DNA of 64,000 nucleotides, from assembly GCA_965644265.1 (NCBI GenBank), contig OZ286474.1, positions 61,690,001-61,754,000 on the forward strand. The letters are read 5' to 3'. The position numbers and the translations under genes are program-made. The notes under the pieces are model-generated. The model saw only the letters and a program-made list of their open reading frames with translations, made no database searches and was not told the DNA's origin. This document shows positions 43,071-63,780 of this stretch, piece after piece (within the stretch, counting starts at the first letter, position 1; each line of letters begins with the position of its first letter). The stretch is from Glycera tridactyla. Taxonomy: Eukaryota.

Positions 43071-43274
43071 TGATAGACTGGACGCACTGTTCATGTGACA
43101 TTTGAATGACATTAGGAGTATAATTACAAAATAAATGTAATGAACATATCCCTCAGATGCTCAAAAAATATCAGGTTTACCTCCCATAACCTCTCATGGA
43201 ACCTACTTGCAAGTCTATATGACCAGCTATTCATCATTTGAAATCACATCATTATTCAATCTCTAGAGGATGAC

Positions 43275-44448
43275 GGATAAATGTAGACCTCTTAAACCAT
43301 TATATGAATTATTTGAATGTCATCATTTTCATAGTGTTTTAGTTTCAAATATGAATGAGGATTCGATTGTGGCTATCTTTGGGCGATGACAGAGTTTTAT
43401 TGCAAAATTGTAAAATCTTACCAGAAATATCCTATAAAAAAAACACAGAATATTCTATGAGTCTTTTTCCAATCATTGTAGGTATCGTCTGTAATCTGAT
43501 CCTATAACCAGAGGGACAGTTTATGCAATTGCTGCAGAAATATACCAATTATTGAGATGCCTAAACTGTCCGGATCCATGAAAAGCCTGCAAAACGCCAC
43601 CTAGTGGCAAAAATTGTCAATATAGGGATTTGCCAATAGTCTTTCTAATTTTTGTAAGGATTATCTGTAGTCTGGTCCTATAATCCAAGGGACAATTCAT
43701 GAAATTGCTGCAGAGATATCCCCATCATTGAGATGCCTATAATGTCTGGATTCATGAAAAGCCTGTAGAACGCCACCTAGTGGCAGAAATTGTCAATATA
43801 GGGATTTGCCAAGAGTCTCTCTAATTGTTGTAAGGATTGTCTGTAGTCTGGTCCAAGGGACAATTCATGCAATTGCTGCAGAGATATCCCCATCATTGAG
43901 ATGCCTATAATGTCTGGATTCATGAAAAGCCTGCAAAATGCCACCTAGTGGCAGATTTAATCAATATAGGGATTCATCAAGAGTATAGATAATCATTGTA
44001 GCGATTGTCTGTCATCTGGTCCTATAACCCAAGAGATAATTCATGCAATTGCTGCAGAGATATACCCATATTGAGATGCCTATACTGCCTGGATCCATGA
44101 AAAGCCTTCAAAATGCCACCTAGTGGCAGAAATTGTCAATATAGGGATTTACCAAGAGTATTCCTAATTATCGTAGTGATTGTCTGTAGTCTGGTCTAAG
44201 AGCCCAAGACACAGTTTATGCAATTGCTGCAGAGATATACCCATTTTTGAGATGCCTATACTGTCTGGATTCACGAAAAGCCTGCAAAACGCCACCTAGT
44301 GGCAGAAATCATCAATATAGGGATTTGCCAGCGTGGTTCTATATCCAAAATGATTCAGTTATGGTTATGTGAACAAGTGTGCCAAGTTTGGTACTTGTTT
44401 CCAAAAGTGCACAAACATGCACTTTTTTGGGGCTTATCCACTGGACTA
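43275..44448 (-). repeat. Right TIR of Academ, containing 5 x ~175-bp subrepeats
   Basis: (C/T)GCCACCTAGTGG at 43595, 43771, 43939, 44114 and 44290. Confidence 0.9.
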
Positions 44449-46051
44449 TAATATGTTATCGTCTTGCTTCACTTTTTGACAACTCACTGTCATATATTCC
44501 ATCAACTAGTTAGTCAGTGCCCCCAGAAGGTAGCATTCATTTGGATTTCGCATTAATTTTCTCATGATTGATGCTCGTGTTGGGTTCAAGTCTTGATGCG
44601 TAAATACCTGATGCGCGGATGATGTAGATTCGGTATCACTCATGATGGAGCACCACATCCATCACCTCCTCACTTACTAACATTCTGTTGTCATGGTAGT
44701 CATCCATGTCTATGACGTTCCAAAAGCCCTCTGGCAGGTCAAGTCGTGTCACATGTATGCAACATCATGTGACTTTTGATGTTTGTCTACGGGTTGGTGA
44801 GAGGGGTAAAGGGGACGTCCACGACTCATCGTTGACCACTGCACTGATCTCCTAATATACGGATTGTACCTGGAGAATCCGCTCACATGCCGTCCTGGCT
44901 GTTTGACGTATCTCATTACGATACAACGCCGTCGTTTTTATATGTTGATGTTTTTCTGTTCTACTTATTATGTGTTCTTGAACTTTTCCGAGTTTCTTCA
45001 TCTTCGAAGGTTATCCAGAAGATGACAAACGCCCGGAATCCAGATCGCAATTTTCATCATATTCGCGTGCATGATACGATGAAAAGGGGAGAAAAGGTCG
45101 CAGCCCAACCAAAATCTACTTTGTGTCTTCTGTATATCTTAGAAATAAGAAACCCTAAAATCATGTCATCCCAGTGATTATTTTCTATCTAGTATGATGG
45201 AATGAACGTGGACAATTTAAGATTGGCCGTTTCTGATTTTATATGATTCTGAAATGAATGTTCCTATCGGAATCATGATCTAAATGTGAGCGAATAGATC
45301 ATTCTCGATTGTAGATGCCGTCCCTTCCCTCGTATACAATGGAAACTGCCTGATGGATATGATCATATATTAGATAAACAGCAGCAGAGTGCATGTCTCT
45401 AGCAGCCACTCTAATCAGCACCCAATTAGACATGTCATAAAATAATTAATGAGCAGGTGTTGGGTATTGAAGATTAGACAAGATGTGTATGTGTGATGAC
45501 ATCACCTGTGATGACGTGGCCATGCTGACCTCAGTGCGCGCATGAATCACCTGGGATGACGTGGACATACTGACGTGGAAGTGATGAAATACACCTGGTT
45601 AGCATCATGGTGTCGCGCATGCATGCTACTGTCGGTGGTATTTAGGTTCTATAATGGCTGTGCTATGGATGATTGAGCATGATGATTTGACAGTTCTGTA
45701 CTGAATGCAGCTATTGCCTTCACCTGACTTGAGTTGAACAGGTGGTTTTATCATTGAATGTAAGACACATCATTCCATTGTTGCAGGAGCTTGCACTCAT
45801 TGGTAACGGTACAGGTATTTGTGGGATAGGAGAAGCATTCATTCGTGGTTGGGTTACCGGTTCACATGATTCATTTGCTTTGGAAGTAAGACTCCAACAG
45901 AATAAATCTTCATCATTTTTTTTTTAATTTCTACAGTTTTGATTACAATGATATAAAGTTGTACACAAATTTCAACTCATACCGCGTGACAGAATCTTCA
46001 TCATTGGCTGAGATTTGACATACATAAGCACAGTTGCACACATTCCATCTA

Positions 46052-46849
46052 TCAATAGTTTTCCATTTCTACTTCACGGGTCAATTCTACATATTTCCAA
46101 TGAGTATTCCATGAATCTTCAGCAAGGTATCGCTCATCATCATTTGAATATTTCCCTTCAACCATTCCCAGTGCACTCTCGCTTCCAAAGCAGTTATTAG
46201 CTATGGAAGATGCAACTTGGAATTCTTCCCACACCGAGATCGGTTTCATCATATTCAATCCACAGGTTCTACAGCATATATACTTCTTTTCAGGTTTACT
46301 ATATACATAATGTCCACATTTGCTACAAATCACAATGATAGAACCATTAATGCTCCATGCATACTTATTTACAGGTAAACATGCTACAAAACACACATCC
46401 CCTTTTTCATCAAATGCTGGCTGCACTTCGCAAATACCAGCATGAACAACTTCAATGCCGTCATCAGCGTCAGCCTCCATACACCTATCATATCCATCAT
46501 ACAAAAAGTGAAAAGCATCTACATTTTCTGCAGAGACCGAGTCATAATTACATTCCATCTCACCAGCTTCATTGATACAATCTTGTTCATATTCTGCAAC
46601 CGAATCGGTTGCTACAACAGTTTCACCTTCACTCATTGCTTCAGGAATATCTAGGAATGACTGACTTCCAAATACATCTAGTGCATTCCAACTCACAATA
46701 GGGGCAACCTGATTACACCTCACTTTCGGATTAGTTGATTCATCTCCGTTGGAAATATCTTGTGGATTAATACAGCAAAATATATTGAAAATGCTTCTCA
46801 ATTTTATCTTCAACACACATTTGTTTGGTAATTTTTTCTTAGACACCAT
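46052..46849 (-). CDS. Polinton accessory protein, acidic, with a CxxC-x12-CxxC zinc-ribbon-like motif
   Basis: 265-aa ORF overlapping the protease end; CSKC...CRTC. Confidence 0.6.
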   Translation of the reverse strand: MVSKKKLPNKCVLKIKLRSIFNIFCCINPQDISNGDESTNPKVRCNQVAPIVSWNALDVFGSQSFLDIPEAMSEGETVVATDSVAEYEQDCINEAGEMECNYDSVSAENVDAFHFLYDGYDRCMEADADDGIEVVHAGICEVQPAFDEKGDVCFVACLPVNKYAWSINGSIIVICSKCGHYVYSKPEKKYICCRTCGLNMMKPISVWEEFQVASSIANNCFGSESALGMVEGKYSNDDERYLAEDSWNTHWKYVELTREVEMENY

Positions 46850-47283
46850 CTATATTTCACCAGAAACTCGTTTTGTTGAAGGTTAAGTATGCTGAAATCT
46901 TTCACATATGTTTCAAAAGATACACCCATACATCTATTGTATGCAAAGTCCAAACAATATAATCCACATGTGTTTGTGTTCATTTGCTGTATCCTTTCAT
47001 TCAAGTAGCAATAAGTTTCACAGTTCCTTTTGATCAACGAGTTCAAGTAGTGATTAGGTATTCCGGCTAATGAATCAAAATATTCACAGTGCCCATTTCT
47101 TGGAAAATAAACGCAGATCCAGTGTGTTCCTCTCTCACTAGAAATACTAGTGTTCGCAATGAGAAATGATGGGAAATGCCGAATCACCAATTCTTGTGCA
47201 TCATCAGCAGCAAATACTCCCAAGAACTGATCCCGTGTTGCTACCTCTATAGATAATATCGAACTGAGCTCTAAGTTATTCAT
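46810..47283 (-). CDS. Adenain-like cysteine protease (virion maturation)
   Basis: GTHW (His), YFDS (Asp), IQ...TCGLYC (Gln, Cys), preceded by FLGVFAAD. Confidence 0.95.
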   Translation of the reverse strand: MNNLELSSILSIEVATRDQFLGVFAADDAQELVIRHFPSFLIANTSISSERGTHWICVYFPRNGHCEYFDSLAGIPNHYLNSLIKRNCETYCYLNERIQQMNTNTCGLYCLDFAYNRCMGVSFETYVKDFSILNLQQNEFLVKYRWCLRKNYQTNVC

Positions 47284-48554
47284 TTCATGACATTTCTTTT
47301 ATCATCTATCTTGATCATGCAAGGGCGTTTCCCGTAAATAACAACTGTTGCTGCTTTTGTTGTCGGGTTTTTCAGTTTGATTGTCAAACGTAAATGACCA
47401 GACAGCGGGACAGCTAGTGAATCATCTGAATTCAAATCACTTAACTGGAAACGATATAATGTAAAACCACCTTTATATGCTTGTTTGCTTAACCTAGCCT
47501 TTGGAAACATGCTTAGAAATCCGTCTAAATAAGAATCTTCCTCATAGTCCAATGAGATGGGACCAGGGAAAACGCTACGGCCGTTGAATGATAGGTCCAT
47601 TGAAATACAGTCCATGTGCTTGAAATTGAAAGGATTTTTAGTCAAGGATCCATTGAAGGCATCTGAGTCCACAATTCCCACAATAACCTCAGATGGAGTT
47701 TCACTATTGAATAGATTTTCATACACTTTCCCATATTCCCCACTCGGGATAACTTGTATTGATAGCATCGAATCATTAAATGCATATTCTGCTGGTTTTA
47801 ATTTCATTGCTTCAACATGTCCGAGTATCACAGCTGGATCCATCTTTACCATAACAACTTGGAGAATAGCATCAACAATTTTCAACTTGTAATCATTTGT
47901 CATATCATCAGATGATAAAACAAACTCTGAGCGTGAGGGTTGAAGCCTTAACCTGATAGGAACATTATTCAGAAGTAGTTTAGGTTGGTTTGCAAAATCG
48001 CACCATAGTCTCCCGATCATCTGCACTGTTTTACTTTTTTTGAAACTGCTTGCTCTATAATTGTAACCCATATTCTTTTCTTCTCCACTCACTGCTGTAT
48101 TATCCACCTGACCCTCTGTATCCATCCAATAAATCTCTGGGGTTAACCAGTTCTCATCATAGTCCTTGTTCAACAGACTCTCAATATAGCACTTGTACGG
48201 CCAATAATTTCCAGTACTGGATGTGCTTATACCCTGAATCATGAGATCAACCTGAGAGAACATTGATTGTAATGTCAAATTACATGGACCAACATTTGCT
48301 TCATCAGCTATTACTGATTGAGTACTATCATCATTCACAATCTTTGCTCTCACCTTTAACTTTGAGTTTTTGAGATCAATGTAGTGATACGGTGAATTGT
48401 TTGGTACTTCAAAATCAATTGTTGATCCGTCAATAATTTGACTTATAGGGCGAAACTCAATCAATTGTTTTTCGAGGGTTCCTTTCTCTATAGGGAGCGA
48501 TTCAACCAATGATATGTTAGAGCTATGACATTCTTCTCTCGCTGTATCACTCAT
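47280..48554 (-). CDS. Major capsid protein (double jelly-roll, Polinton PY/hexon-like)
   Basis: 424 aa; EEC..NISL, IEFRPIS, IDFEV, YIDLKNSKL, LQSMFSQV, YPYKCYIE, NPFNF are characteristic of Polinton MCPs; located between the core protein and the protease. Confidence 0.9.
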   Translation of the reverse strand: MSDTAREECHSSNISLVESLPIEKGTLEKQLIEFRPISQIIDGSTIDFEVPNNSPYHYIDLKNSKLKVRAKIVNDDSTQSVIADEANVGPCNLTLQSMFSQVDLMIQGISTSSTGNYWPYKCYIESLLNKDYDENWLTPEIYWMDTEGQVDNTAVSGEEKNMGYNYRASSFKKSKTVQMIGRLWCDFANQPKLLLNNVPIRLRLQPSRSEFVLSSDDMTNDYKLKIVDAILQVVMVKMDPAVILGHVEAMKLKPAEYAFNDSMLSIQVIPSGEYGKVYENLFNSETPSEVIVGIVDSDAFNGSLTKNPFNFKHMDCISMDLSFNGRSVFPGPISLDYEEDSYLDGFLSMFPKARLSKQAYKGGFTLYRFQLSDLNSDDSLAVPLSGHLRLTIKLKNPTTKAATVVIYGKRPCMIKIDDKRNVMK

Positions 48555-48895
48555 TTTCGGGCTTTGTTTTCACGGCGCTTCCACACCCTTTTCCTACGCT
48601 TGCAGCTCCCAGACTTAGCTGACTTAGATCCACAAGGACTCTTGCGTTTGTGATTTGGATTGGATGTGCTAGCTTTATTTATAGACTGCTTCAATTGTGA
48701 TTCGGCAATATCTATTGCCTGCTGTGCAGGTGAGACTACTTTGATTGTCGGCGGTGTATCGCCGGAACCTTTCTGTACCATCACATATCGCCCCTTGCGA
48801 TGAGGTTTATTCCCAGCCATATGAATGAAATGTGTTCTCCATTTTTTCGGGTCAGGTGCTGCACTTAGTTCTGTTTCTTGAAGTGAAGTAAACAT
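48551..48895 (-). CDS. Small basic putative core (DNA-condensing) protein
   Basis: 114 aa, Lys/Arg-rich C-terminus, VQKGSG protease-site-like motif and VSPAQQA..AES.L motif seen in small Polinton ORFs. Confidence 0.65.
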   Translation of the reverse strand: MFTSLQETELSAAPDPKKWRTHFIHMAGNKPHRKGRYVMVQKGSGDTPPTIKVVSPAQQAIDIAESQLKQSINKASTSNPNHKRKSPCGSKSAKSGSCKRRKRVWKRRENKARK

Positions 48896-49302
48896 CGTGA
48901 TGGATTGTTCAACTCTGTGAAATAAGCAAGTGCACTCTCGTCTTTTATACTTATGCGAACACTGTCAATATACTTTCGGGTAACCGGGTGGTACAAGGGA
49001 TTATTCACATCAATCACTTGCATGCTCCCGCTTTTTTCTGACAAATTTACAATATTCAAAAGCGGGAGAAAGCGATCACGAACATAGCTCTCTTGAATGA
49101 AATCGCATACAAATAACAGACGTGTGAATTGCATGATTTTTGGGGAAACAACAGCTTGGAGTAGTGCACACTGCCATCCGTCCCCGACCAAATTCATAGA
49201 TGTTGGTAAAATGACAGTGTAATCATGCGGTTGATTGCTGGAATATGTCTCAATTGAATCCTTAGAGGTAAGGAAGAGAAAAAATTCGTCATGTTCATCC
49301 AT
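48865..49302 (-). CDS. Minor capsid protein (single jelly-roll, penton-like)
   Basis: FFLFLTSKDS...N..HDYTVILP...L.GDGWQCAL; CDFIQESYV...PLL; LYHPV; ISIKD; LHF. Confidence 0.88.
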   Translation of the reverse strand: MDEHDEFFLFLTSKDSIETYSSNQPHDYTVILPTSMNLVGDGWQCALLQAVVSPKIMQFTRLLFVCDFIQESYVRDRFLPLLNIVNLSEKSGSMQVIDVNNPLYHPVTRKYIDSVRISIKDESALAYFTELNNPSRCLLHFKKQN

Positions 49303-49339
49303 TGCCAGTCGAGTGAGTGAATTGGGTGTGGTGTTTTAT

Positions 49340-50440
49340 CTACTTATATTTAGCAAAGTCATTTTTATCGATCCAACTGTTATATGAATTCGACCATCCT
49401 TTCCATTTTACAAGATACTGCTTCTTCCCTCTATGCTTCCGCTGTTTGATCACTCTTTCTACATCATATTCAGTGGTTTCATCAATAGTTACTCTTTGTA
49501 GTTCAGCTGAATAAAAACTACCACCGATTGGATTGTTTTTCCAATCTTTGAGTTCGTATTGCGGTATATTCTGGTTGAACTTCAGTTTTGTGATAATGAA
49601 TAATTCTTGCGTCCATTTTTCATCATATTCTTTATCATATGGTTGCCTAATGGATGAAATCCTAACAATATCATCCACTTTATATTTATGTTTGATGTTA
49701 TTTTTTGGAAATGGAACCTTAGACTGGTCAGATTCATATAGTTTATTCCACAAATCAAAATTGTCAGTGCTTGTTACATCAGCTGGAGCTTTATCGATAG
49801 ATGAAAGTATAGTATTATTATAACTTTTAACTATATCTGGCAAAATATCTATCCAACGATTTGTCTTGTTGTTTCTCATGTATCCAACCAGTTTTGTCTT
49901 GATAGTTTTTATTGCACGCTCTGCTATGTTTGCTTTTTTATCTGATTGTGCAAAGAACTGATCAATATTTTGCTCTCTCAATACTGATGCCACTGTCTTG
50001 TTTTTAAACTCGCTACCAAGGTCTGAACGAATTTTTTCAGGTTTAACAGCTGTAGTGGAAAATATGTCTTCTAGCATGGAACTAACTTCCCCCGCTTTCA
50101 ATGTTTTCATTGCTCTTGCAAAAATGAACTTGCTGAATATATCAATACCGAGTATGAAATACTTTTTTCCGTCATTAGTTGATGCATACTTTGTCATATA
50201 TGCAGTATCGAAATCCCATTGATAGTTGGGATAAGGTGCGATTACTTTAGGACGTTTGTTCACTTTCTGACTTGCACGATGAAGTGTGTAATAATCCTGA
50301 GCTTCCAACCATTTTGTTATTTCTCCTCGATTAAATTTAGCTCCTCTTCTTGTAACATTTTTCCTAATTTTTCCAAGAGAGGAAAAACTTGCAGGTGTCA
50401 CTGGATTCAGCGAAACAGAATTTAAGGGAGTGTCTTCCAT
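49340..50440 (-). CDS. Retroviral-like DDE integrase with C-terminal chromodomain
   Basis: YTLH, WDFDTAYM (D), IDIFSK, IRSDLGSEF (D), IAERAIKTIK (E); chromodomain YDVERVI...YLVKWKGW...NSW. Confidence 0.96.
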   Translation of the reverse strand: MEDTPLNSVSLNPVTPASFSSLGKIRKNVTRRGAKFNRGEITKWLEAQDYYTLHRASQKVNKRPKVIAPYPNYQWDFDTAYMTKYASTNDGKKYFILGIDIFSKFIFARAMKTLKAGEVSSMLEDIFSTTAVKPEKIRSDLGSEFKNKTVASVLREQNIDQFFAQSDKKANIAERAIKTIKTKLVGYMRNNKTNRWIDILPDIVKSYNNTILSSIDKAPADVTSTDNFDLWNKLYESDQSKVPFPKNNIKHKYKVDDIVRISSIRQPYDKEYDEKWTQELFIITKLKFNQNIPQYELKDWKNNPIGGSFYSAELQRVTIDETTEYDVERVIKQRKHRGKKQYLVKWKGWSNSYNSWIDKNDFAKYK

Positions 50441-51042
50441 TTGAATACAGCACGCTGTTGTCCTGTCGTTTGCTCCTCAGGCTCTCTAGCATGACTGGTA
50501 GATTTATGAGGTACAAGTCTCCTTTTCTTCTTTGTGAACGGGGGAACACCTGGTGGTGGTGGCTGTGGTAGAGGTACTGCTGCACCTGCTAGGTTATTTG
50601 ATTGTAAACTCTCTGCAACGGTATCATTACTTCCTCCGCCTGACAATTGTAACACTTTCTGAATGACATCTGAATTCAACAGTCCATTCATGATTTCAAT
50701 AATGTTTGAATTAGGTACAGTGGAATCCCCAGCTAGTAGTTCCCCGTCCTTATTCCATTTCACGGTCTTTCTCAATATGCTCAATATCTGTTTCGCAGTC
50801 TCTATCATTGCAGCAGGTACTTTTTTCAAGATGTTGCCGTCACCAGTGTGTGTTTCTTCATCTGACACAAAATTTGCTTGCATATGTCTTTCCTTGTTAT
50901 CATCAATTGCACTATCTTTCTCTGTTTCAGTGATTGGTTGAATTTCTGCTGTATTCACAGGAGCATGGATACATTCCTTCAGTGATTGATATTCATCTGA
51001 AGGAAGTAAAACCATTTTCTTCACATAATCCATTCTATTCAT
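50422..51042 (-). CDS. Conserved Polinton protein (PZ-like)
   Basis: KKMVLLP N-terminus, AK.IL..L...KWNKDGEL...VPNSNI core, LSGGG protease-like site, terminal KW. Confidence 0.7.
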   Translation of the reverse strand: MNRMDYVKKMVLLPSDEYQSLKECIHAPVNTAEIQPITETEKDSAIDDNKERHMQANFVSDEETHTGDGNILKKVPAAMIETAKQILSILRKTVKWNKDGELLAGDSTVPNSNIIEIMNGLLNSDVIQKVLQLSGGGSNDTVAESLQSNNLAGAAVPLPQPPPPGVPPFTKKKRRLVPHKSTSHAREPEEQTTGQQRAVFKWKTLP

Positions 51043-51353
51043 ATCAGTGAAAGTATTATGTCCTTTGCAAACATCAGTGTATCATATACACTGCGGTAAT
51101 GTTTCGCAATGAGTTCACCTGATCTTTTCCCACTATATTTTACAATTTTTTCTAAGAGAGATCGTCTCCTTTTAATCTTCGCCTTCTGTACAGGTGTCAG
51201 TTCAATATCTCCGTCTAGGATATTATGCAGAATCTCTCTCACTGCCTGAATCTGCTCTCTATCTAATGTATCTAAAAGAGCATGCGCCTGTAGTGTTGAT
51301 GTGGTCAATAGCAATCTTAAAAAGGAAGGTGAATTCTCAAGTGACTCGCTCAT
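51039..51353 (-). CDS. Conserved small helical/basic Polinton protein (probable start MSESL at 51353)
   Basis: ALL...REQIQAVREI.HNIL.GDI.LT..QK.KIKRRR..L pattern is typical of a Polinton small ORF near the ATPase. The track ORF begins at a TTG (51488). Confidence 0.7.
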   Translation of the reverse strand: MSESLENSPSFLRLLLTTSTLQAHALLDTLDREQIQAVREILHNILDGDIELTPVQKAKIKRRRSLLEKIVKYSGKRSGELIAKHYRSVYDTLMFAKDIILSLI

Positions 51354-51399
51354 TTGTATAGATGTTTCCTGTTCTGTGGTCACAGCAAGAATGAGGAGA

Positions 51400-52083
51400 T
51401 CACTTAGGAACATAAACAATTGTACTCTCATCAGGGAATATTTTAGATCTAAGCTGATGCTGACGAATGCGACGTGGGGATCGATCAATAACTAAATATC
51501 CATAATCTTCAGAAATTGCATCCTTATACGCATTGACCAACTGTTTGCATATCCCCATCTGTTTCCCTAAAATCTCGATGTGGAGAAGATCAGAACATTC
51601 AAACAAAATGATGTAATGCGCATTCATATTAATTGTTCTGCTAGCCTTCCCTTGACAAAAAAAATTTTGGTTGACATATAAAACAGACAAATTTTTATGG
51701 TGTGAACCTCTAGTGAATAAGGTTTGAACACTTTTACTTTCACTTATGGACTGCATTAAATCATCGAGAATTATAATACAATGTCCAGCGCCTTTTCTGA
51801 ACTCATCAATGTGCTCCTCGGTTGGTATTCCTTCGTGGAATTCTATTCGCTGCGATATTGTCTGCATGTCAGTAAATACTGGTTGAAAAATCGCGTAGCA
51901 GTATAAGACCCGTTCTGGTATCTCATCTGGGAATAGTGCGGGAAGATGCTGCAATAGTCTTCTTATCCATGTTGTTTTACCAGACTGGGTGCACCCGGAG
52001 AGAACCATGGTCGTTGGTGCGTGGAATGGATACATTCTCTTTGAGCAGCTTGTGGTTGACTGTGACAGTTTGCGCACTGTCAT
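51400..52083 (-). CDS. A32/FtsK-like DNA packaging ATPase
   Basis: Walker A GCTQSGKT, Walker B IIILDD, FTRGSHH, NQN, IN.NAHYIILF, YGYLVID. Confidence 0.95.
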   Translation of the reverse strand: MTVRKLSQSTTSCSKRMYPFHAPTTMVLSGCTQSGKTTWIRRLLQHLPALFPDEIPERVLYCYAIFQPVFTDMQTISQRIEFHEGIPTEEHIDEFRKGAGHCIIILDDLMQSISESKSVQTLFTRGSHHKNLSVLYVNQNFFCQGKASRTINMNAHYIILFECSDLLHIEILGKQMGICKQLVNAYKDAISEDYGYLVIDRSPRRIRQHQLRSKIFPDESTIVYVPK

Positions 52084-52264
52084 ACATTATATATTTCAGT
52101 TTCTCGGACAGAATTCGATTCAGCATTCTCTCACTTTTTTCTACTCTACGCTGGAAATGCTGTCTGTCAATGGCAATTTGCATCCATACCCCTTTCCGTT
52201 CTTCTTCTGCCCCAGAGGGAATGAAATGTTGCTGCAACTCGTCGGAGAAAGCAACATGCGGCAT
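51977..52264 (-). CDS. GADD34/ICP34.5/DP71L-like PP1 regulatory protein (eIF2alpha phosphatase adaptor)
   Basis: HVAF (RVxF-type PP1 motif) followed by RKGVWMQIAIDRQHFQRRV, matching the RxGxWxxxAxDRxRFxxRI eIF2alpha-binding consensus at 1 substituted position. Sits in the gap between pPolB and the ATPase, co-oriented, ATG with A at -3. Confidence 0.8.
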   Translation of the reverse strand: MPHVAFSDELQQHFIPSGAEEERKGVWMQIAIDRQHFQRRVEKSERMLNRILSEKLKYIMYDSAQTVTVNHKLLKENVSIPRTNDHGSLRVHPVW

Positions 52265-52389
52265 TATAGAAGCAGTATAGACTGAACTGCGCTAATACAA
52301 CTGCTTTCCCGAATGAAAATGGATTTCCAAGTAAAACCATACTCATGATCCTCCAGTATGACTGAAAAGATTGAACGTGATTAGCACAT

Positions 52390-55300
52390 TCATGCACGTC
52401 CATCCTTCGCTGAGGTTAAATGTTTCTGTCTCACAATGTGCCAGATCAATCCCATTTTATTTTGTCCTGGAGCGGAATCCCGATTGCGAACTAGGGCTAC
52501 TCTCTCATTCAATCCGCAGCTGAACCACCTTTCTCTAGCATGTGTGTGCACGAAAATTAGTTCTCTGTCTTTAGTTTGAAGTAATACTGCTTTTATTTGC
52601 GGATACAATCGGGTTTTTGCTAAACTAATTTGAAGTAAAACATTATCACATTGTCTCAACCATTCTTCACTGGATTTTATCTCATTATCTATCTTTAGGA
52701 GACTGTCTGTGCTGTTCGCGATGATTGCATCTGATATGAATTCAACTGCTGAGTGGAACAGTGCTTTTTGATGAACAAATCCCTGCAATATTGACTCATA
52801 GGTTGTATGATTATCATTCAAAATGAAGATTCCTTGATGAAATGGGGATAGTATATGACCAGAGTTGAAAACATATAAATCTCTATCATCAATTGGAGAG
52901 AGGAGAATGTCTAAGGGTTTGGTATTTATCCCATCATCTAATACCATTCTTTTGCAATAAAAGTATGAAAAACCACACTTTCTTTGTTTGTATGTGTAAA
53001 CAGTGCCATTTCTCGCTCTGATCCCTTGATTTATATGCATCACAGGTTGTGCTGTTTCAATCACAGATCTGAATATAGACAAAGCATCAGTTAATGTTGA
53101 TTTGTTCACACCTTTACAACTAACCTTATTCCCATTATCACTCTTCAATAGATAACATTTGGATGATAACGCAATCATTTCATCACCACGCGCCTCTTCC
53201 TTAAACAATCCTGGGGTACGAGAATCCAGTTTTGCATGTTTTGTACAGCAGGACCTCGTGAACCAAATATCTCTCCCGTTAGGAATGAAATTGGAATTAT
53301 CATCACATTTCTGCAATGTCATGTGCTCCAGCTTTTCTTTCATGTGCGGTTTCACTGCATCTGCAAATGTTTCAGAGCTGAGTGCCATGTAGGCAGAATC
53401 TGTATCCATTTCTATGTATTGATAATCCTTCCTATTAACATAAACATCAACAAAATCATAATAGAAAGAAAGCATATGCATTTTCGCATATTGCAGCACA
53501 AAATAACCCAGCTGGATTGGGAGATTCATTGTAATTGAACGTGGACTCATTTCAAGTTCATATAGATCATGTGTCAATTCGGTCATTGATCTGAATTTCG
53601 GATCATTCATTTCAAAAAGTAGCTCATTTTCACTTTTGACATATTTAATGTTCTGATACTTTGTCTTCTCGATCAAGAGACTTCCGTATGAACTGTTCCC
53701 AAGGAGTTTCATTGCCTCGCCTATAATTGCCATATCTGGATTTTCATCACCTAGTCTTCGTGCTTTGGTTACATTTTCCTGAAACGTCTTAAAACATGGA
53801 GATTTTGAATACTCAACAACTTGATGAACCTGTGTTACATATAAACCATGAAGCAGATACCACCTCAGCAGAGGTGTTGCAATCAGCATGCGTCTTGCTT
53901 TCATTCCACCAACTAAACATTTTCGTGGGTTTGTGGAGAGATTATTTCTGTATGCATGGTTCTGCATATGCTCGCCTATGCTTTCAAATGGAATATCAAC
54001 TGTGCAGAACAGTGGAGTCATCTCTGAAAAGTATTCATATGGTGTGAGCTCAGTATCACTTTTTATTGTCCAAGATTCAGGTGTTTCAATATCAACTTCA
54101 ACGGCACCGAAGAGCTCTTCTGACACAACAGCTTGTATAATATCATCTTGAGTGGTGCTTTCCTTATGTTTTCTGTAGAAATTTGGGAGAAAATGATCTG
54201 CAGAGTTCTGAATTGATGGATCTGTTTTCATTTGTGTGATAAAATCACATTCCCACACATGAACAACTTTGTATCCAGAATGGGTTAGAAATGTCCTCCT
54301 TTCAACTGTTCTTTTATAGCGTTTTTGGAGATTCTTTACATCTTTGCTTGATGTCATTCTCCTATTCAACCAGCATTCATTTGGATCATGTCCATGCCAA
54401 TAGCATCCATCAAACTCGTAAACTGTATTGGCTTCAGGATCGAACCCGTCAACAAGGTAAGGTCCTATTCTAGTTTCAACTGCGTTATTCAGTTTGTGTA
54501 GTATGCAACTATTTTGCTGTTTTATTTGATACTCTAGCCAAATATACATCCTGAAAAACTTTTGTGCTATCACTGGTTTGAATTCATCTGCGGCAATTCG
54601 TCTGACATATATACCAGTTGGCATTGGTTGTGCGAGCGCCCAAAGATATAGTGCATTAGCATCATATCCTATCACACTCTTGCAAACCTTGTCACCTCTA
54701 ATCAAGGTTTCATCACATTTATGATGTCGTGTGAATATGATACTTGGACCACCAACAACATTTTTCTTGATTATATGATACAAGTCTTCATCATTATGTG
54801 ATATGAGACTAAAATAAGCTTTATTTTCTTTTGCAGATTGGAATAGGAGTTTTCGAGCAATGCCAGGTACGGATATTGCATTTTTGAAGATATCAACCCC
54901 CATTTTGAGATAGAACTGACGCATTTTCTCAGTTGCTTCAACAAAAGGACCGACATCTAAATTGTTATAATATATCAGAAAATCTCTCATAGTTTTCATT
55001 CCATTTTGTTCCCATATTTCCAATAGGCGGGTGTAATTTTCATGTCCAGTTTTAGGAGTGAGACCCTTACCATTCCAATTGGAAAATTCTTGCTCTAAAA
55101 TATTTGCTTGTTTCAAGCTTGAATAAAAAGCATCATAGCAAGGAAGAGCTTGTTCACTCAACTTTTCTGGTGTAGTCAACCATTCATATGGGAAGAAAGA
55201 TTTCTTTTCATCAATCCCAAAAGCCTTGAGAAATTTTACATAGCTAGATCCGGGGGCTAAGAAATGAGAGATGTCTAAAAAAATGAAATCATTCACAGCT

Positions 55301-55647
55301 ATGCAAGCATATGCAGAACCTTTCTTGATAACATTCACTTTTTCATCTGTTTCAGCTAAAAGCAGATCAATGAAGTATGCTTTGATCAAATTCAAATCAT
55401 ATCGCGCAGAGTTGAACCCAAGTACTGGAACCTGATGACAATATTTTTCAAAATCCTCACGTAGTTTTGTAATTTTCTTCAGTAGTATTTTGCAATTAGG
55501 GTTTGCTGTAACTGTAATTTCACCAGCTGACTGACACGCTGCATCGATAATCACTATGCCATTGTTTTCATCATTTCCAATACCACTGTCAGCAAGACTG
55601 GAGTGAACTCCATTGATAACAGCAGTATCATCTTCACCATCATCATC

Positions 55648-55681
<34 letters not shown>

Positions 55682-57888
55682 GAAGCAACAGCATCAGCTG
55701 TAGCACCAATTGTTATACTTGTACTGCTATCAGTAATGTCTGTACGTGGATTAATATCAATGTCATGAAATGTCACACGGTCTTCAAAGAACATATCAGT
55801 TTCTGAGATGGTTGAATTTTGATCATCAATAGCTTCCCATTTCTGTTTCAATGTATCCAGTTGTGTGAAAACATCTTTCCATTTTGCGTAGGACTGAGAT
55901 TTCACAGTTTGCACAATTTCAACTAGATACGCATGGAAAGATTGTAGCAGTTTTTTAGGATCTGAATCAATCAGACAGTTCGGTGTAGTGAATGTGTCAA
56001 CATTACTTGCTACACTCACAGAGATGGGAATATGCTCATGCTGCCATAGTAACTGTTCTGTCACCTGCTCATTCTTTGTGTTCAAAATTGCTTCGAAATC
56101 ATATACAATGAACCAATCAAAGTACTTTCTTTCATCAGCAATTTTGATACCGTATTCTTCAAGTCTCTCAAATATTGTTGTAGCATTTGAGTGAAACCCG
56201 CCTGAAAACTTCAATTTTGTCCCTGACGAACATACTCTTACATGCTGCTTCAGTTTTTTTCGAGTATTGAAATGACGGTGACAGCTAGGGCAAGCAAATT
56301 TCTTTGCATAATCAGAAAATGACTTCACATAACTCAAGTGTTTCTCATGCAAATTGAGATACATTTTATCATGGAACTTCGCACTGGAACTATACACTGG
56401 AGTGACTGAACCATCTGCATAGAGCATGAATACACCAACATTGATGCTGAAACATTTTTCAAAGGCAGGTAAGTCAGCAATTTCTATTCCACGATATTTC
56501 TTAGGATCAGTAGGGGGAGAATTTGCGCAGTTCCTCATCCACTGTTCATATAGTGATAACACATCTGCAGTCACTGGTCTAACTTTTTGTGATCTGTGTA
56601 CTGCAAGACATCTGAAAATGCATAATGAATCTTGATACGGCTCTCCAGTTCTTTTATCACACTCTAGAGAAATGATATGTGGATTAGACTTGATATAATT
56701 TGGGAGGGAACCTGCACCGAGGGTATATGCTGTTTTGTAGACTCGTATATTGATATTTGTGACAAGAAACGGTTTCCAGTCTGTGTTCGGTCTCTGCATT
56801 CTAATGTAGGACTCTACATCTATATCCCTTATACGATTCAAAACCTTATGGAGATCATCTTTATTTGTGATTAAAAGTGGAAAAGTGAAAATATTTGCAT
56901 TCTTGTATGGAACAAAGTAACGATATCTATCCCTATCTGTAGCAACATCAACATTTTCAGTGGAAGAAATCCGCCTCAATATCAAACCAAATGAGATGTT
57001 CACTTTGAAAGAATTTGATTGTTGGGAATAGATAGTGACTAAGTGTTGCGAAAGTTCATTGACACCGTTCTCCAAATCATTTGTTGGAAAGTTGTATGTG
57101 GAACTGAAACGTGCATGTCTATGCGGACGCAAAATATGCAGTTTGTTTCTGTTGTATACACTTTCTAATTCTGTATCTATCACCCCATCGTCATGCTGCC
57201 AAGGAGGCATGCTCCATGGATACGAATGAAGTTCAGCTGCACTCCCATCACCATGCATCATGTTCCTATGAATATACAACAAATGTGTCGTGCTGAACTT
57301 ACAGTCACAGTCATAGCATGAATAGCTTTGACGTGCTGTTTGTGTTGAATGAATAGCGAGATGTGGTGTGAGTTCAGCATGTGAAGGGAATGTTTCTTGA
57401 CATATGTGACAACTAACAGAACAGCAAGTCAATACATGATTCCTAAAATTCTGTGGACTGAAAAAATCCAAGTAGCATGTTTGACATCTATATCTCAACT
57501 GTCTCGAATGTTTCAATCGCATATGTTTTCTGAGATTGAAAATTCTAGTGAAAGTACATTGACATATCTCACATGAAAAGTGATTATGCTTTGAAGAAAT
57601 TACATGTTGTTGTATACCACTTGCGTTGACGTCTTTCCCAGCAGTAGAAGTAGAGGTAACAGTTGCCATAGGTATATTATTCCGTTCCTGGTATTCAGAT
57701 GAAGTTGATGGTTGCGATTGTACAGCTGTAGCACCCCTATTCCGTAATTCCATCCAACGTAAATTCACATGATGGTCATTCTGTAAATTGTTTTTTATCG
57801 CCCAATTTTCAAGTTCCTTTGGATCATTGAAACTGTTCACTATCGTGTTCATGATATATGAACTATCCTCATTCGAGAAGTACTCCAT
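52390..57888 (-). CDS. polB: Protein-primed family B DNA polymerase polyprotein (C2H2 fingers, terminal-protein region, 3'-5' exonuclease, polymerase with Vsr-like insertion, C-terminal NADAR-like domain)
   Basis: 1832 aa intact. ExoI YDFE, ExoII GFNSARYD, ExoIII YNNLDV, motif A YDANALY, motif B KLLGNSSYG, motif C EMDTDS. Confidence 0.97.
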
Positions 57889-58120
57889 GCTGATGTTTAT
57901 CGCCTATTAGGTTAGCAGCTATTTGGATGATAGCGTTAGAGTCTGAAACCTTCTGAAATAGTTCAAATGGAATCGAGAATGACTTCTTGTTTTTATAGTA
58001 AAACAAGACTAGAAGCACCTCAGATTTTTTTCTCACTTTTAGCTGAAGTTCAGGTGTGATGAAAATTAGAAATTGATTTTTCTCTGCAATGTCACGTTGA
58101 TCAAGCTGTGCTTGCGCCAT
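57869..58120 (-). CDS. Small protein, possibly PC4-like ssDNA-binding
   Basis: 83 aa overlapping the pPolB start. LQLKV...VLLVLFYYKNKKSFSIPFELFQKV...II resembles the PC4 beta-sheet plus KGISL...W..L helix pattern. Confidence 0.45.
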   Translation of the reverse strand: MAQAQLDQRDIAEKNQFLIFITPELQLKVRKKSEVLLVLFYYKNKKSFSIPFELFQKVSDSNAIIQIAANLIGDKHQHGVLLE

Positions 58121-58370
58121 CTATGGTATCGTAATCCTCCTCGTTGATTGTTTGTTGAGAGATGTTCCCAGTTGAAAATCCTTCAGTTTTTTTGTTGGAT
58201 AACCACGCTTGTCTATGTTTTTCCAGAGCTACTGCTCTTCTTTCAGCTAGCTGTTTCAACTCGATTGTTTGGAAACGTACTAACTGCTGTTTAACAATGG
58301 AAAGTTCCAACTGTAAATCCTCAATTTTTGCTTCCAGTGCTATAATTGTCTGAATGTATCGGTTAGTCAT
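58101..58370 (-). CDS. Small coiled-coil protein (probable start MTNRY at 58370)
   Basis: Heptads IIALEAKIEDLQLELSIVKQQL. First ORF of the minus-strand cassette, overlaps the next ORF. The track start at 58391 is TTG. Confidence 0.6.
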   Translation of the reverse strand: MTNRYIQTIIALEAKIEDLQLELSIVKQQLVRFQTIELKQLAERRAVALEKHRQAWLSNKKTEGFSTGNISQQTINEEDYDTIDGASTA

Positions 58371-58449
58371 ATTCTCCAAACAGGTACACAAGTTGCTCTA
58401 CTGCATTCAGCATGTGTAACTATATTACAGACAGGTGCAGCAGTCTGTA

Positions 58450-58455
58450 TTTATA
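58450..58455 (-). promoter_or_regulatory. TATA box candidate for the Polinton minus-strand cassette
   Basis: GCTATAAATAC ~80 bp upstream of ATG 58370. Confidence 0.45.
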
Positions 58456-58814
58456 GCATATCAACAACGTTCGCGTTTGTAGCATGACATGACATGCTGA
58501 CCTCATGCTTTATCAGATGAGGGTGTCAAAACATGCACATTCATCCTCCATTGCAATACACCGCATTTAGATTGAGTGTCATCAATGCAATAGTTTCTAC
58601 TATCAAATTGCGATGAGGTTGCAATCATTTACTAGTACCATTTACCATTTGACTGCGAGAAATAAGATCATGCAGAGCGCCATCTAGCGTGACAATCCAT
58701 TGAGTTACGCCCATGCGCTAGCGCCATCTAGCTTCACATGACGCGATAATTTATGCGGTGAAACCACGCGCTATTTGCACATGCGTACCAGATCTTTCCA
58801 CACCGCTGCCCAAA

Positions 58815-60423
58815 ATGAATCGTTGCTACGAAAACCGACATTGTCATTGTAATTGGGTAGGCAAGGCGTTGGAAATGTGGTGCACCGGTATTGGTCCGAA
58901 GGCGGGGTGGGAGAGAGATCAGGCGGAACGAATTTATGTTGATGGACAGCTCGTGTTTGATCGTGCAGCAGGTATGTTTCATTGCGCCTGAGCGATAATT
59001 GCTGTTCACCGTGTTCGAACGTTCTAGATCATGAATAGAGTAACAGGTGCTGACAGAGAATTTCAATTTGTTTACGGATGTTCATGTGTAGTTGAATAGT
59101 GACTAATCACGCCGTGTTAGAGTGAAGGAGGTTTGCCAATGATGGTTCGATGTAACTGCGCATAAAATGTTGATATGCGTGCGCGTGTGTGTACGCGTGT
59201 TTGTAGTTAACTTCATGATAAATGTGCAGAGTTGCTCGAGTTGAACCACGGATTATTTTCTCACATCTCTTGAGCGCAGACACAGTTTGATGAAAGGAAA
59301 AAATTAGCACACAGGTTACACTCAATCCACATTGAATGTTGATATTTAATTGATTTGTGGAGAAATTCCATTCTTTAAAAACTGAATGGTGCAAATGTAT
59401 TAATTCTAGTTTTTAAATGTGAATCTCATTTCAAGAGAGTGGGTTCACACCAACTTTTCTCTTGTCTAGTTGAAATATCAATTATAACATGGGGAAAAAT
59501 CACTCTACTTTTCTTATACATTTGAAAATTTCTGTTTGTTTCAGAACATGGAGTGACTACATCCGCTGCTATCATGGTGGATAAAGATGATCAATATGAT
59601 GTGAATGAGCGAAACATCATACTCTACACAGCTGTGTTCCTGGTTGTGCTAGCTGTGATCTTCATCACTATATGGATGGTTGTTAGTCCAAAAAGTGAGT
59701 ATAACTGCTTTTATTTATTCCTTTGAAATGGTTAAACGGATCAAATCTGTTAAACTGAAGAACAATCAACTGAGAAATAATTGCAAAGATTGGTTCACAC
59801 TTTCCAGGTGCTAAACTGAACTTGAGCTTTATGCTTGAGATTAAGACTTCAACATGATTTCTCATATCAAATCATATAGGAAATGTGCAATCCCTGATTT
59901 ATCTCATTCAAACAGTCTGTAACATTTCCAATTATTCATATAAGAATTAGCCAGATAAATACTCAGCAAATGAAAAGATCAGTCAGCATGAAGAGTTATC
60001 TCACAGATATGGAATTATATGGAAGAAGCAATGTGAACTTTGATTTGAAATGCAACATCAAAAAGTTCTTCATTTCTATTTTCAGTTGAGATCAGAGCAT
60101 GGATCAGGAGGAGGATGGTGTGCGGGAGGGATGCTGATGGAAACAGTGATTCAGTAGCTCCGATTGTTCCTGCAGCTGTTGCTACAACTTCTGTTTCTGA
60201 TGTCACAGCTCCAGCTGCTGCTAGTGTTGATGCAGCAACCGAACGAAGCAAAGATGGAGAGTGTATCAGGATGAAACGGTTGGAGAAATTCCAACCAGAT
60301 CCAACCCCGAGGAGATCACAAAGGTTGCAGAATACAGCAGAGGATGTCAAAAACATTGCGGATGCTGTAGGTGCATCTGCTAATGCTGCTGCAGCAGTTG
60401 TTGCAATTGGGAAGATGGTTTGA
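58815..60423 (+). CDS. Three-exon gene (58815-58971, 59545-59694, 60086-60423) for a 214-aa single-pass membrane protein
   Basis: caaaATG start; GCAG|gtatgt, tttcag|AA, AAAA|gtgagt, ttttcag|TT. Both introns are phase 1 and the spliced frame stays open. TM segment IILYTAVFLVVLAVIFITIWMVV followed by a basic patch (RAWIRRR). Confidence 0.8.
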
Positions 60424-60429
60424 TTCACT

Positions 60430-60610
60430 TGATGATATTTGCTGGAGCATTAATCATTTAGTTCCTTCAGCGCATTAGTATTAGACTTCTTAGTCCAACA
60501 ATATTTCAAAACGAGCAGGTATAATTCATTTGATGACATTTGCAGGAGCATTAATCATTTAGTTTCATCAGTACATTACTGCTAGTCTTCTTAGTCCTGT
60601 AATATTTCAA
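60430..60610. repeat. ~100-bp tandem duplication
   Basis: TTGATGA(T/C)ATTTGC(T/A)GGAGCATTAATCATTTAGTT occurs twice. Confidence 0.8.
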
Positions 60611-60789
60611 TATGACCAAGTGGTGAACATTGAAGCTACAAGCATAGCTTGGTTCTTTATTTCATGCAGGAATAATCATTATTCTACTTGCTGTCTGACT
60701 GTGCCATATGGATGTATTCATATGTCAGGTTTGCAAATATCTGTAAGTCCATGCTTGACAGACGAGTTGATGCAACAAATATCTCCCAC

Positions 60790-61620
60790 TCCAGTTTTTC
60801 TCTTGGTTGATTTTATATTTCATGCAGAATAGTTATAAAATTTGAACTCTGGAACAGATTGTCTATGCGATACGGTTTTGCACTTGCTAGATTTTATATT
60901 TCATGTAGAACAATTTTGAAATTCAAACAGAACAGAATGTAGATTCATGGTGAACAGAAAAGTTGGTGCAACAAATTAGAATGTAGATTCAAACCGAACA
61001 GAAAAGTTGGGACATCCAAACAGAATGTAGATTCCTTGTAAACAGAAAAGTTGGAACAGCAAATCAGAATATAGATTCAAGCTGAACAGAAAAGTTGGGA
61101 CACCAAATTTCTTCCTCTTCAATCTCATAAAAGTTTTCGCACTTGCCTGATTTTATATTTCATGTGAATGTTTTGAAGTATCTGTAGGGAAGTATCTGCA
61201 GGTTTAAACCGAACAGAAAAGTTGGGACATGGAAACAGAATGTAGATTCCGTATAAACAGAAAAGTTGGAGCAACAAATCAGGATATAGATCCAAGCTGA
61301 ACAGAAAAGTTGGAACACCAAATTTCCTCCTCTTCAATCTCATAAAAGTTTTGCACTTGCCTGATTTTATATTTCATGTGAATGTTTTGAAATATCTGTA
61401 GGTTTATTCCAAACAGAATATAGATTCATGCTGGCCAGAATAATTTCTTCGTTTTTATATTTCATCTGAACAGTTTTGAAATTTGAACTTGGAAACAGAT
61501 CTTCTATGCAATATGGTTGTTTTTATTTGTCTTGTTTCGAAATATCTGTAGTTACATGTCAAACAGAAAAGTTGGAGTAACAAATTCCATCCTCAACAAT
61601 CTCAGTAAAGTTTTTATCTG
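60790..61620. repeat. Degenerate nested tandem repeats
   Basis: Recurrent AACAGAAAAGTTGG / AACAGAATGTAGATTC and GCACTTGCCTGATTTTATATTTCATG modules. Confidence 0.8.
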
Positions 61621-62074
61621 CTTGATTTTATATTTCAATCGTGAAGGTTTTCATTTTGCATATGCATCCTATTTAGTAGATGCACTGAAGCAGTACAAGC
61701 TGTAGACATTATATGTAACCTAATTGATCTCAGGAACTGAATCACTTGTTTAGTACTTACACTGAAACAGCAGCAGCTGCTGTCATTATTCTATGTAACC
61801 TAATTGATCTCAGGGAATTGCTTGTTTGTTTGTGTAGAAATGATTGTTATTTGTTTCCTGTTCTGTTTTTATTTGTAAGTATTGGCCCACAAACTACATT
61901 CCGATCATTGATCACATGAGTGCACTAATGCACTCTGATCACATGAATATTTGAATTTCATACTGCTTTGCCTACCCGGAATTGAGATATGGTTCCTCTT
62001 GGTTAGACATGACTGGGTTGACCTGAGAGGGATGAATATGGATTCAACAGGAGGTTAGCAAAGCAGTATAAAAT

Positions 62075-63390: not shown

Positions 63391-63709
63391 AAATCACCTT
63401 TTATACATTGCGCGAGATTTTAGACTTGAGATAATTGTGAATGATTATGACTATTATACCATGTGTATTATGTTTATACAGAAGAGAACACATGTTGTTT
63501 TCACATATTTGATACATATCATCCTGAGAGATGTATTTTGACTGAATGTGTCTAATCTGTTATTGTTACTAGAGAATTATTGGCTGGACCAAATTTGATA
63601 TGATGCACGTTGATGTAGAAAATAAAGTTGTTTTATTCTTCTAGTTTGATTTTCCTTTTTTATTCATCAATTATCCAGCAACACAAATAGATATGACAGT
63701 GACAGTAGA

Positions 63710-63780
63710 AGCGGTTGCAGCAGCAGCTGCAGCAGCAGCAGCAGCAGCAGCAGTAGCAGCAGCAGCAGTAGGAGTAGCAC
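63710..63780. repeat. (CAG)n microsatellite
   Basis: Direct reading. Confidence 0.9.

Follow-up and report, generated by a model that had tools for sequence, protein, structure and literature searches.

The whole stretch of 64,000 nucleotides of Glycera tridactyla DNA analysed here, called the window below, contains a Polinton on its minus strand between positions 46052 and 58370. The assignment follows from the functions and the core genes of the element, the completeness of which is not proven. Thirteen closely tiled and mostly overlapping open reading frames (ORFs) fill the segment, and in the order from 46052 to 58370 they encode a protein of 265 amino acids (aa), a protease, the putative major capsid protein, a 114-aa basic protein, the putative minor capsid protein, an integrase, proteins of 206 and 130 aa, an ATPase, a 95-aa protein, the DNA polymerase pPolB, and proteins of 83 and 89 aa (Table 1). 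A preliminary description of this DNA had counted about 12 core and accessory ORFs without stop codons and had listed catalytic residues in the polymerase, integrase, ATPase and protease. Both statements agree with our analysis: all 13 frames, including the 1832-aa pPolB, are open, and we detected ExoI, ExoII, ExoIII, PolA, PolB and PolC motifs in pPolB, D-D-E in the integrase, Walker A and B in the ATPase, and H-D-C in the protease. The two features on which this report centres are the C-terminal tail of pPolB, which has a NADAR fold and an eroded catalytic site, and the 95-aa protein, which is a predicted adaptor of the phosphatase PP1. For comparison we used 81 related loci (numbered with L), many of which are too short to show the adaptor gene.

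Table 1. Features of the Polinton and its flanks, in window coordinates (o/e, observed/expected)
Feature	Position	Strand	Remarks
Candidate left terminal region	45380..45660	.	begins AGCAGCAG; three TGACGT sites; no partner in window; speculative
265-aa ORF, function not assigned	46052..46849	-	open; acidic stretch and CxxC...CxxC zinc-ribbon-like motif; overlaps protease ORF
Adenain-like maturation protease	46810..47283	-	Peptidase_C5 E 0.002, below Pfam cut-off; H-D-C motifs; homologues in 9/81 loci
Putative major capsid protein (labelled by position and PY motifs)	47280..48554	-	424 aa, open; homologues adjoining INT/PRO in 8/81 loci
114-aa basic protein between minor and major capsid genes	48551..48895	-	open
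Putative minor capsid protein (labelled by position)	48865..49302	-	145 aa, open; tblastn match in 1/81 loci (L067)
RVE integrase with C-terminal chromodomain	49340..50440	-	Pfam rve E 1.2e-9, Chromo E 5e-10, both above cut-off; D-D-E
Small ORFs of 206 aa and 130 aa, conserved in Polintons	50422..51431	-	open; tblastn matches in 2/81 and 5/81 loci
A32-like packaging ATPase	51400..52083	-	Pox_A32 E 1.8e-4, below Pfam cut-off; Walker motifs; 64% identical to L002 ATPase
95-aa DP71L/CReP/GADD34-like PP1 adaptor, predicted eIF2-alpha phosphatase recruiter	51977..52264	-	PDB sequence matches, motifs and synteny
pPolB, 1832 aa	52390..57888	-	open, intronless; Exo and Pol motifs; 777 relatives at E<=1e-20
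NADAR-fold tail of pPolB, catalytically eroded	52423..52854	-	Pfam NADAR residues 1679-1822, E 7e-13, 49.5 bits (cut-off 35.1)
Small ORFs of 83 aa and 89 aa, upstream of pPolB	57869..58370	-	open
CpG-rich region, candidate divergent promoter	58400..59200	.	CpG o/e 1.0-1.1 vs 0.57 over ORFs, ~0.3 downstream
Spliced single-pass membrane protein gene	58815..60423	+	predicted exons 58815-58971, 59545-59694, 60086-60423

The pPolB relatives that have names belong to bivalves, abalone, sea cucumber and amphioxus, and include Haliotis, Pecten and Tegillarca. Pfam identified C2H2 fingers and the NADAR domain in the protein. From residue 1145 on there is also a motif that we take to be VSR-like; Pfam gave no Vsr match, and one relative, P0070, is named very-short-patch-repair endonuclease in its source record. 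The NADAR domain forms the C-terminus of pPolB and is not a separate gene. An AlphaFold (AF2) model of the tail, made with an alignment of 21 sequences, reached a value of 90 in the predicted local distance difference test (pLDDT). When the model was compared with the PDB by Foldseek, the sole matches at E<=0.001 were the Phytophthora NADAR protein 8BAU and E. coli YbiA 2B3W (TM 0.66-0.71), and the named top viral structure matches were NADAR proteins. A direct search of the PDB with the tail sequence gave nothing relevant.

We mapped the pocket residues via P0142, which aligns directly to PDB 8BAU, using the residues reported in PMC11543638 (this and the other articles and the preprint cited below are quoted from the parts available). 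In the window tail, Leu-1701 stands at the position of Phytophthora E43 (E43/E88, the first glutamate), and Phe-1779 stands at E125 (E125/D171, the second acidic residue); that is, both acidic residues are replaced. Lys-1708 at K50 (K50/K95, the phosphate-binding lysine) is kept, as is Trp-1743, the equivalent of W89, and the equivalents of G78, R79, R93, D130 and W133 are all replaced. The preliminary description had counted this domain as a DNA ADP-ribose module. The NADAR fold is indeed there, but it is fused to pPolB, and two of its three catalytic residues have been replaced. Since other residues stand in for the catalytic glutamates both here and in almost every related tail, it is unlikely that the tail of this copy acts as an enzymatic counter-defence.

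The same erosion was seen in the relatives. The NADAR family PF08719 was found in 11 of the best 120 of the 777 pPolB matches. Judged by length among 122 pPolBs (these 120, P0001 and the window), a tail of at least 150 aa follows the thumb in 17 and a remnant of 125-149 aa in 15, together 32 of 122, counts that are enriched because the query contained the tail. The remnants hold only the C-terminal NADAR motifs, with WxCG and GxNxLG still present. To count residues, 54 polymerase tails and 36 other matches were aligned, leaving out two polymerases with acidic tails (P0034 and P0065), the DUF4326-bearing P0009, P0027 with its doubled tail, and the six partial matches P0137, P0143, P0145, P0158, P0165 and P0182. 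The catalytic triad was kept in 1 of 39 full tails, in none of the 15 remnants and in 1 of 5 uncertain fragments, compared with 22 of 31 other NADARs. Likewise, E125 was kept in only 2 of the 39 full tails against 25 of the 31 other NADARs, and W89 was retained in 38 of the 39. The full tails are only 22-30% identical to the window tail, yet they are free of stops and have the full-length fold.

In a quick tree of 75 domains, from which the remnants were left out, the polymerase tails made up one side of a branch, with a support (SH-aLRT) of 88. In this tree the triad-intact P0147 and P0160 stood beside the remaining polymerase tails (93); P0147 is a fused copy, 34% identical to window residues 1472-1821. 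This arrangement is consistent with one capture of an active NADAR followed by an early loss of E125. In a tree of the polymerase core, the window fell in a group of 24 rows (92), 23 of which have tails.

The strength of selection on the tail was judged from the comparison of the window with L002. The pPolB cores of these two are 60% identical and the tails 34%, with a value of 0.62 for second codon positions of the tail. Four-fold sites are near saturation, being identical at 32 of 130 in the core and 3 of 9 in the tail, the latter too few to be used alone. Because the tail keeps these identities despite near-saturated four-fold sites, it appears to be under constraint, which is weaker than that on the core.

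Some observations on related domains are added here. In P0009, a related pPolB, DUF4326 occupies residues 1489-1569 in place of NADAR, and in P0027 the tail seems to consist of two partial NADAR units in tandem. P0138, P0157, P0184, P0123 and P0135 are non-polymerase NADAR proteins without both catalytic glutamates; P0123 has five repeats. According to PMC9503650, DUF4326 is linked to ADP-ribose processing.

We then consider the 95-aa protein. Its residues 1-55 matched PDB sequences of African swine fever virus (ASFV) DP71L (E 2.8e-5), PPP1R15B (CReP; E 7e-5) and PPP1R15A (GADD34; E 0.004). The docking motif, HVAF at residues 3-6, aligns to that of CReP and reads RVTF in L002, and LNRIL aligns on LSAVL of DP71L. 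It is reported that DP71L function needs the VxF motif and both leucines of LSAVL (PMC5346070). The motif for eIF2-alpha binding that PMC5346070 quotes from Rojas et al. is missed in its strict form at one position (H for R). Of 82 sequences, just the window and L002 contained a relaxed form of the motif, which gave no match in 200 shuffles. L002 has the same order of genes as the window, namely the 83-aa ORF, pPolB with tail, the adaptor, the ATPase and the 130-aa ORF.

A homologue search with the adaptor yielded no shared words, and scans of viral contigs gave no relative of the adaptor or of the ATPase, and one distant pPolB. In the ESM Atlas, the adaptor scored 0.92-0.93 with PP1c_bdg clusters, a value of low use for recognition; one cluster is labelled Preplasmiviricota, the phylum being known for one member. 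Because of this label, related viruses may already have such adaptor genes in databases. The proposal of translation rescue by a PP1 adaptor thus gains support at the sequence level from the DP71L, CReP and GADD34 matches, the eIF2-alpha motif with one mismatch and the synteny in L002. It had been said that the proposal would fall if the accessory ORFs were not linked to the core in other copies; the adaptor is linked to it in L002. The adaptor is the sole supported counter-defence gene of the element, and its predicted role is well supported by sequence.

We also looked for the ends of the element. An intact Polinton is described as having open core ORFs, terminal inverted repeats (TIRs) and a 6-bp target-site duplication (TSD) (PMC8097293). 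The TIRs of such elements end in (AG)n or (AGT)n, and several near-identical copies are expected. No TIR pair was found in 44400-64000, and a sensitive self-BLAST of both flanks of the element against the remainder of the window gave none; the right end is possibly located past 64000. Therefore, neither end nor the TSD of the element is defined. The element had been called fully intact, in part by contrast with decayed neighbours; our analysis does not establish this, since the window holds no TIR pair and a LINE nearby is also largely open.

Contigs of three sequencing runs (X1-X3) were available, the RNA status of which is a guess; their depth was not used for ranking genes, and gaps in their cover were not counted as evidence. 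In X1, 31 of the 36 contigs placed on 44450-62000 were at least 99% alike to the window. These contigs overlie parts of the Polinton ORFs, which fits transcription, with DNA in the run being possible too; X3 placed no contig on the window region. Since one contig skips a GT..AG intron, X1 contains spliced RNA. The open frames and the near-identical X1 contigs are consistent with recent activity of the element.

The intron in question is intron 2 of the spliced membrane gene, which lies on the plus strand to the right of the ORFs. An ORF at 60115-60423 is the last exon of this gene and not free-standing. Intron 1 is predicted by splice sites and phase only, and an X1 contig crosses its 5' site unspliced. 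Exon 1 is Cys-rich, and exon 2 has a 19-residue window with a hydropathy of 3.0. Whether the gene belongs to the element seems to us about evenly balanced. Upstream of pPolB, related Polintons have ORFs that are rich in Cys and in Ser/Thr and look like surface proteins, and for this reason the spliced gene could be a surface-type accessory. Such ORFs, which combine a signal-like start with a small domain rich in Cys and a stalk rich in Ser/Thr, were seen at L008:2550-3614, L013:276-2859, L040:5197-6141 and L069:2596-3402, and the two that were scanned had no Pfam match. Against membership are the introns and the continuation of the spliced contig into repeat-rich DNA, as well as a repeat further downstream that is shared with window 7.8-8.7 kb. 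The body of the gene is also CpG-poor (about 0.3) and in this resembles old host-resident repeats, so that it may be a host gene. In the preliminary description it figured as a membrane effector. A single-pass membrane gene is indeed predicted, but its exons had no homologue in the 81 loci and no toxin-like domain, and its membership is unproven.

Taking these results together, we think it likely that the locus holds a Polinton that is young and intact in its coding frames, belongs to the pPolB2/VSR type of marine invertebrates, does not have both of its ends within the window, and carries a non-catalytic NADAR-fold tail on pPolB and a PPP1R15-type adaptor. Polintons replicate by protein-primed copying by pPolB, integrate by an RVE integrase, and have genes for capsid, packaging ATPase and protease. 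This element would replicate and integrate as other Polintons do. We suppose that in an ancestor of the lineage the C-terminus of pPolB was joined to an active NADAR N-glycosidase, which lost its second catalytic glutamate at an early stage and the other residues of the pocket at a later one. We observed that the domain is fused, that it has the NADAR fold, that catalytic residues are lost and how far this has spread; the order of events is our inference. The fold would then have stayed under selection in many sublineages and, in another, have shrunk to a remnant of about 135 aa. Most likely the window tail is a non-catalytic accessory domain on the replisome, perhaps binding nucleic acid or docking a protein. 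The adaptor, encoded directly downstream of pPolB, would dock PP1 via VxF and aim it at phosphorylated eIF2-alpha, and the dephosphorylation of eIF2-alpha would keep translation on while the genes of the element are expressed.

Several points weigh against this interpretation. The support in the domain tree is moderate (88-93), with no bootstrap and a midpoint root, and the tail-bearing polymerases are not one clean clade in the core tree, some of them being outside the group of 24. The tail is absent from 90 of the 122 sampled pPolBs (one of which has another domain there) and is therefore dispensable for Polintons in general; moreover, its progressive shrinkage could reflect slow loss just as well as exaptation. 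The tail may keep some activity or have a changed one, since Lys-1708 and Trp-1743 are kept and the E88A change is reported to have had little effect in vitro (PMC11543638). In net charge the tails are close to neutral (median 0), which gives no support for DNA binding. As for the adaptor, its Pfam PP1c_bdg score (20.7 bits) is below the cut-off of 26.1, H takes the place of the conserved R that precedes F, and a single one of the 81 related loci, many of them too short to show it, was found to have the gene.

These points lead to other readings, which overlap in part with ours, so that the weights given here are not meant to add up to a whole. The tail could still be a counter-defence, namely a remodelled NADAR that binds or removes guanine ADP-ribose ahead of the polymerase, opposing host DNA ADP-ribosyltransferases such as clam CARP-1, an enzyme that modifies guanine N2 in DNA (PMC11543638). 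The intact fold, the kept equivalents of K50 and W89, the triad-intact fused copy P0147 and the DUF4326 found at the same place in P0009 all suit this idea. However, replacement of the equivalents of E43, E125, G78, R79, R93, D130 and W133 removes most contacts to the ribose and the pyrophosphate, no CARP-1-like enzyme has been demonstrated in the host, and the reversal of CARP-1 marks by NADAR lacks experimental confirmation according to PMC11543638; we consider this reading unlikely. Of similarly low probability, in our judgment, is that the tail is a vestige, an old and decaying capture that is kept only since it must fold or must not disturb the end of the polymerase. Such decay would produce the gradient from intact to eroded tails, to 125-149-aa remnants and to absence, and would suit the lower identity of the tail than of the core between the window and L002. 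Nevertheless, a useless tail could be removed by one stop codon, whereas a stop-free, full-length fold persists among tails that have diverged as far as stated above, and WxCG and GxNxLG survive even in the remnants.

The reading of the preliminary description, in which the polintovirus is complete and virion-competent and has three functioning modules against the host, the membrane effector among them, has in its favour the open core frames, the supported adaptor, and the surface-type upstream ORFs of L008, L013, L040 and L069, one with a clear C-terminal hydrophobic helix. We nevertheless regard it as very improbable, in view of the missing TIR pair and TSD in the window, the eroded NADAR domain, and the introns, CpG-poor body and lack of homologues in the 81 loci of the membrane gene. 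A further and tentative idea, which we doubt, is that an animal Polinton lineage tethers an ADP-ribose-sensing domain to its polymerase, a former eraser of guanine ADP-ribosylation that would now be a reader or shield, and that DUF4326 took the same place in one branch. If an ADP-ribose-sensing tail and a DP71L-like adaptor did occur together, invertebrate hosts would restrict Polintons by DNA ADP-ribosylation and translation shutdown, that is, as replicating viruses.

The interpretation that we favour, a Polinton with a non-catalytic tail and an adaptor, can be compared with known systems. Jeong et al. (bioRxiv 10.1101/2023.08.22.554363) described Polintons (Mavericks) with pPolB2 and a VSR insert in molluscs and a marine nematode. 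The window element resembles them in its Exo and Pol motifs, a putative VSR-like palm insert, the RVE integrase, the ATPase, the protease and the capsid-type genes, and it differs in having the NADAR-fold tail and the PP1 adaptor. Neither "NADAR" nor "YbiA" occurs in the available main text of that preprint or in one supplementary file of PMC10748475, and one supplement each of PMC11131425, PMC8502044 and PMC10748475 contains no NADAR or PP1 terms. With the NADAR N-glycosidases of the YbiA subfamily (Phytophthora 8BAU, E. coli YbiA 2B3W and DarT1 antitoxins; PMC11543638), the tail shares the fold, K50, W89 and the GxN motif. In contrast to them, it has changed E43 and E125 equivalents and most pocket residues, and it is fused to a replicative DNA polymerase.

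NADAR domains also occur in retrotransposons, namely in Ectocarpus Gypsy Pol and in ORF1 of an oyster Tx1 LINE (PMC12477816). Capture by a mobile element and fusion to a core protein are common to both cases; however, the Gypsy domains are highly conserved according to the same article, while the window domain is eroded and belongs to a DNA-virus-like element. In our own sample, the non-polymerase NADARs mostly keep the triad, and among the nearest outgroups of the polymerase tails are proteins that, from their zinc knuckles and coiled coils, we assume to be ORF1-like. NADAR, mostly with an intact triad, ends proteins of LINE-ORF1 appearance (zinc knuckle or coiled coil) in P0152, P0154, P0163, P0164, P0166, P0174, P0175, P0177, P0185 and P0186. 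Our sample suggests that the fusion of LINE ORF1 to NADAR seen in oyster Tx1 (PMC12477816) may be widespread.

The predicted adaptor shares VxF, the eIF2-alpha motif in its relaxed form and an LxxxL aligned on LSAVL of DP71L with ASFV DP71L, herpes simplex virus ICP34.5, GADD34 and CReP (PMC5346070), and it has the minimal size of DP71L. Unlike these, it is encoded by a Polinton between pPolB and ATPase, and has H before VxF and H for R in "xRF". Membrane-active accessory genes of adintoviruses, namely PLA2X, GasderminX and Cupiennin, have been proposed to act on membranes (PMC8502044); the candidate in the window differs as an intron-containing single-pass protein. Neither Pfam nor hydropathy detected a PLA2, gasdermin or cupiennin-like domain in the window, the adintovirus genes themselves having been defined by profile-profile searches. 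The anti-host toolkit had been described as more typical of large lytic DNA viruses than of a transposon. Membrane-active accessory genes are already described in animal Polintons (PMC8502044), so that a toolkit as such is not foreign to them.

We found no published report of a pPolB-NADAR fusion or of a PP1 adaptor in a Polinton, in a search that left most subscription papers, Repbase notes and bioRxiv supplements outside. The Polinton itself is of a known kind; what appears to be new is the eroded NADAR tail of pPolB and the PP1 adaptor, neither of which we found described for Polintons. A gene for the recovery of translation is most readily understood in an element that makes many proteins at the same time and sets off a stress response, and the adaptor in this way bears on the question whether animal Polintons behave as viruses. 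The pPolB-NADAR fusion is a lineage marker. The pPolB tails also form a natural series from intact enzyme to remnant, with which one can ask what NADAR does in animals and whether animal DNA ADP-ribosylation counters mobile DNA. The testable points of the locus are thus the adaptor and the lineage-wide eroded tail, rather than intactness.

The remaining genes of the element are described briefly. The ATPase and the protease are below the Pfam cut-offs, yet their motifs are present and they have syntenic homologues in related loci. Polintons have a double jelly-roll major and a single jelly-roll minor capsid protein. The 424-aa protein is presumably the major capsid protein from its position and from what we take to be Polinton PY motifs, and the 145-aa protein is presumably the minor one, again from its position. 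The sizes and places of both fit, and neither matched Pfam, PHROG or PDB sequences. In several other loci the position of the minor capsid gene is occupied by ORFs of 137-138 aa. The 114-aa basic ORF had no tblastn match at E 0.01 in the 81 loci; by eye, small basic ORFs were seen at its position in L008, L012, L040, L053, L067 and L069. The 206-aa and 130-aa ORFs, which we take to be probably of the PM/PZ/PW type, have no hydrophobic window of transmembrane grade. In L002 and L003, the ORFs found at the position of the 83-aa ORF share 47-49% identity with it.

The 265-aa ORF is probably a Polinton accessory gene. It had no Pfam match and no LxCxE motif, its fold predicted from a single sequence had a pLDDT of 32, and its best ESM Atlas score of 0.78 is a lead only. 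Two X1 contigs match the element in pieces of 26-29 bases, one at 54643-56634 in pPolB and the other, a diverged contig, at 46108-46968, where it links short matches to the 265-aa ORF and the protease; they possibly come from diverged Polinton families, and such joints are weak. An 86-112-aa conserved hydrophobic ORF lies beside the ATPase in L013:9715-10053, L040:14789-15049, L067:10563-10850 and L069:11451-11714, and none was seen in the window element. The Polinton of L067 carries two further genes at 16057-17486, one resembling TBP (Pfam TBP E 8e-27) and the other PC4 (E 4e-21).

On the right flank, the CpG ratio, about 1.0 at first, drops to 0.3 at 59.2 kb and reaches 0.03-0.15 at 61.6-63.6 kb. 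Two copies of the motif GCGCCATCTAGC are present at 58671-58732, in the CpG-rich region that lies upstream of the pPolB unit. Tandem arrays of 44 bp and 499 bp, strongly CpG-poor, lie at 60926-63386, and the 499-bp unit resembles window 7814-7886 and 8605-8726. Rfam gave no match across 44400-64000. On the left flank, a decayed gene at 44453-45010 was considered and rejected, the best Pfam match being noise (E 0.15) and tblastx giving no match in the 81 loci.

Farther to the left, an Academ-type element at 39902-44449 has inverted arms of 733 nt, a 3-bp TAA duplication and no ORF longer than 128 aa, and is thus decayed as had been stated. The LINE fragments had also been called badly decayed, a statement with which the LINE at 22513-31582 (minus strand) disagrees. 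It keeps stop-free frames of 887 aa (ORF1), 358 aa (GDSL/SGNH esterase-like), 827 aa (endonuclease and reverse transcriptase) and 161 aa (tail frame). Its 358-aa frame overlaps the end of ORF1 in a different frame, and about 2.5 kb without a long ORF separates the esterase from ORF2. At the start of the window, positions 1-1760 hold about 50 copies of a 34-bp satellite.

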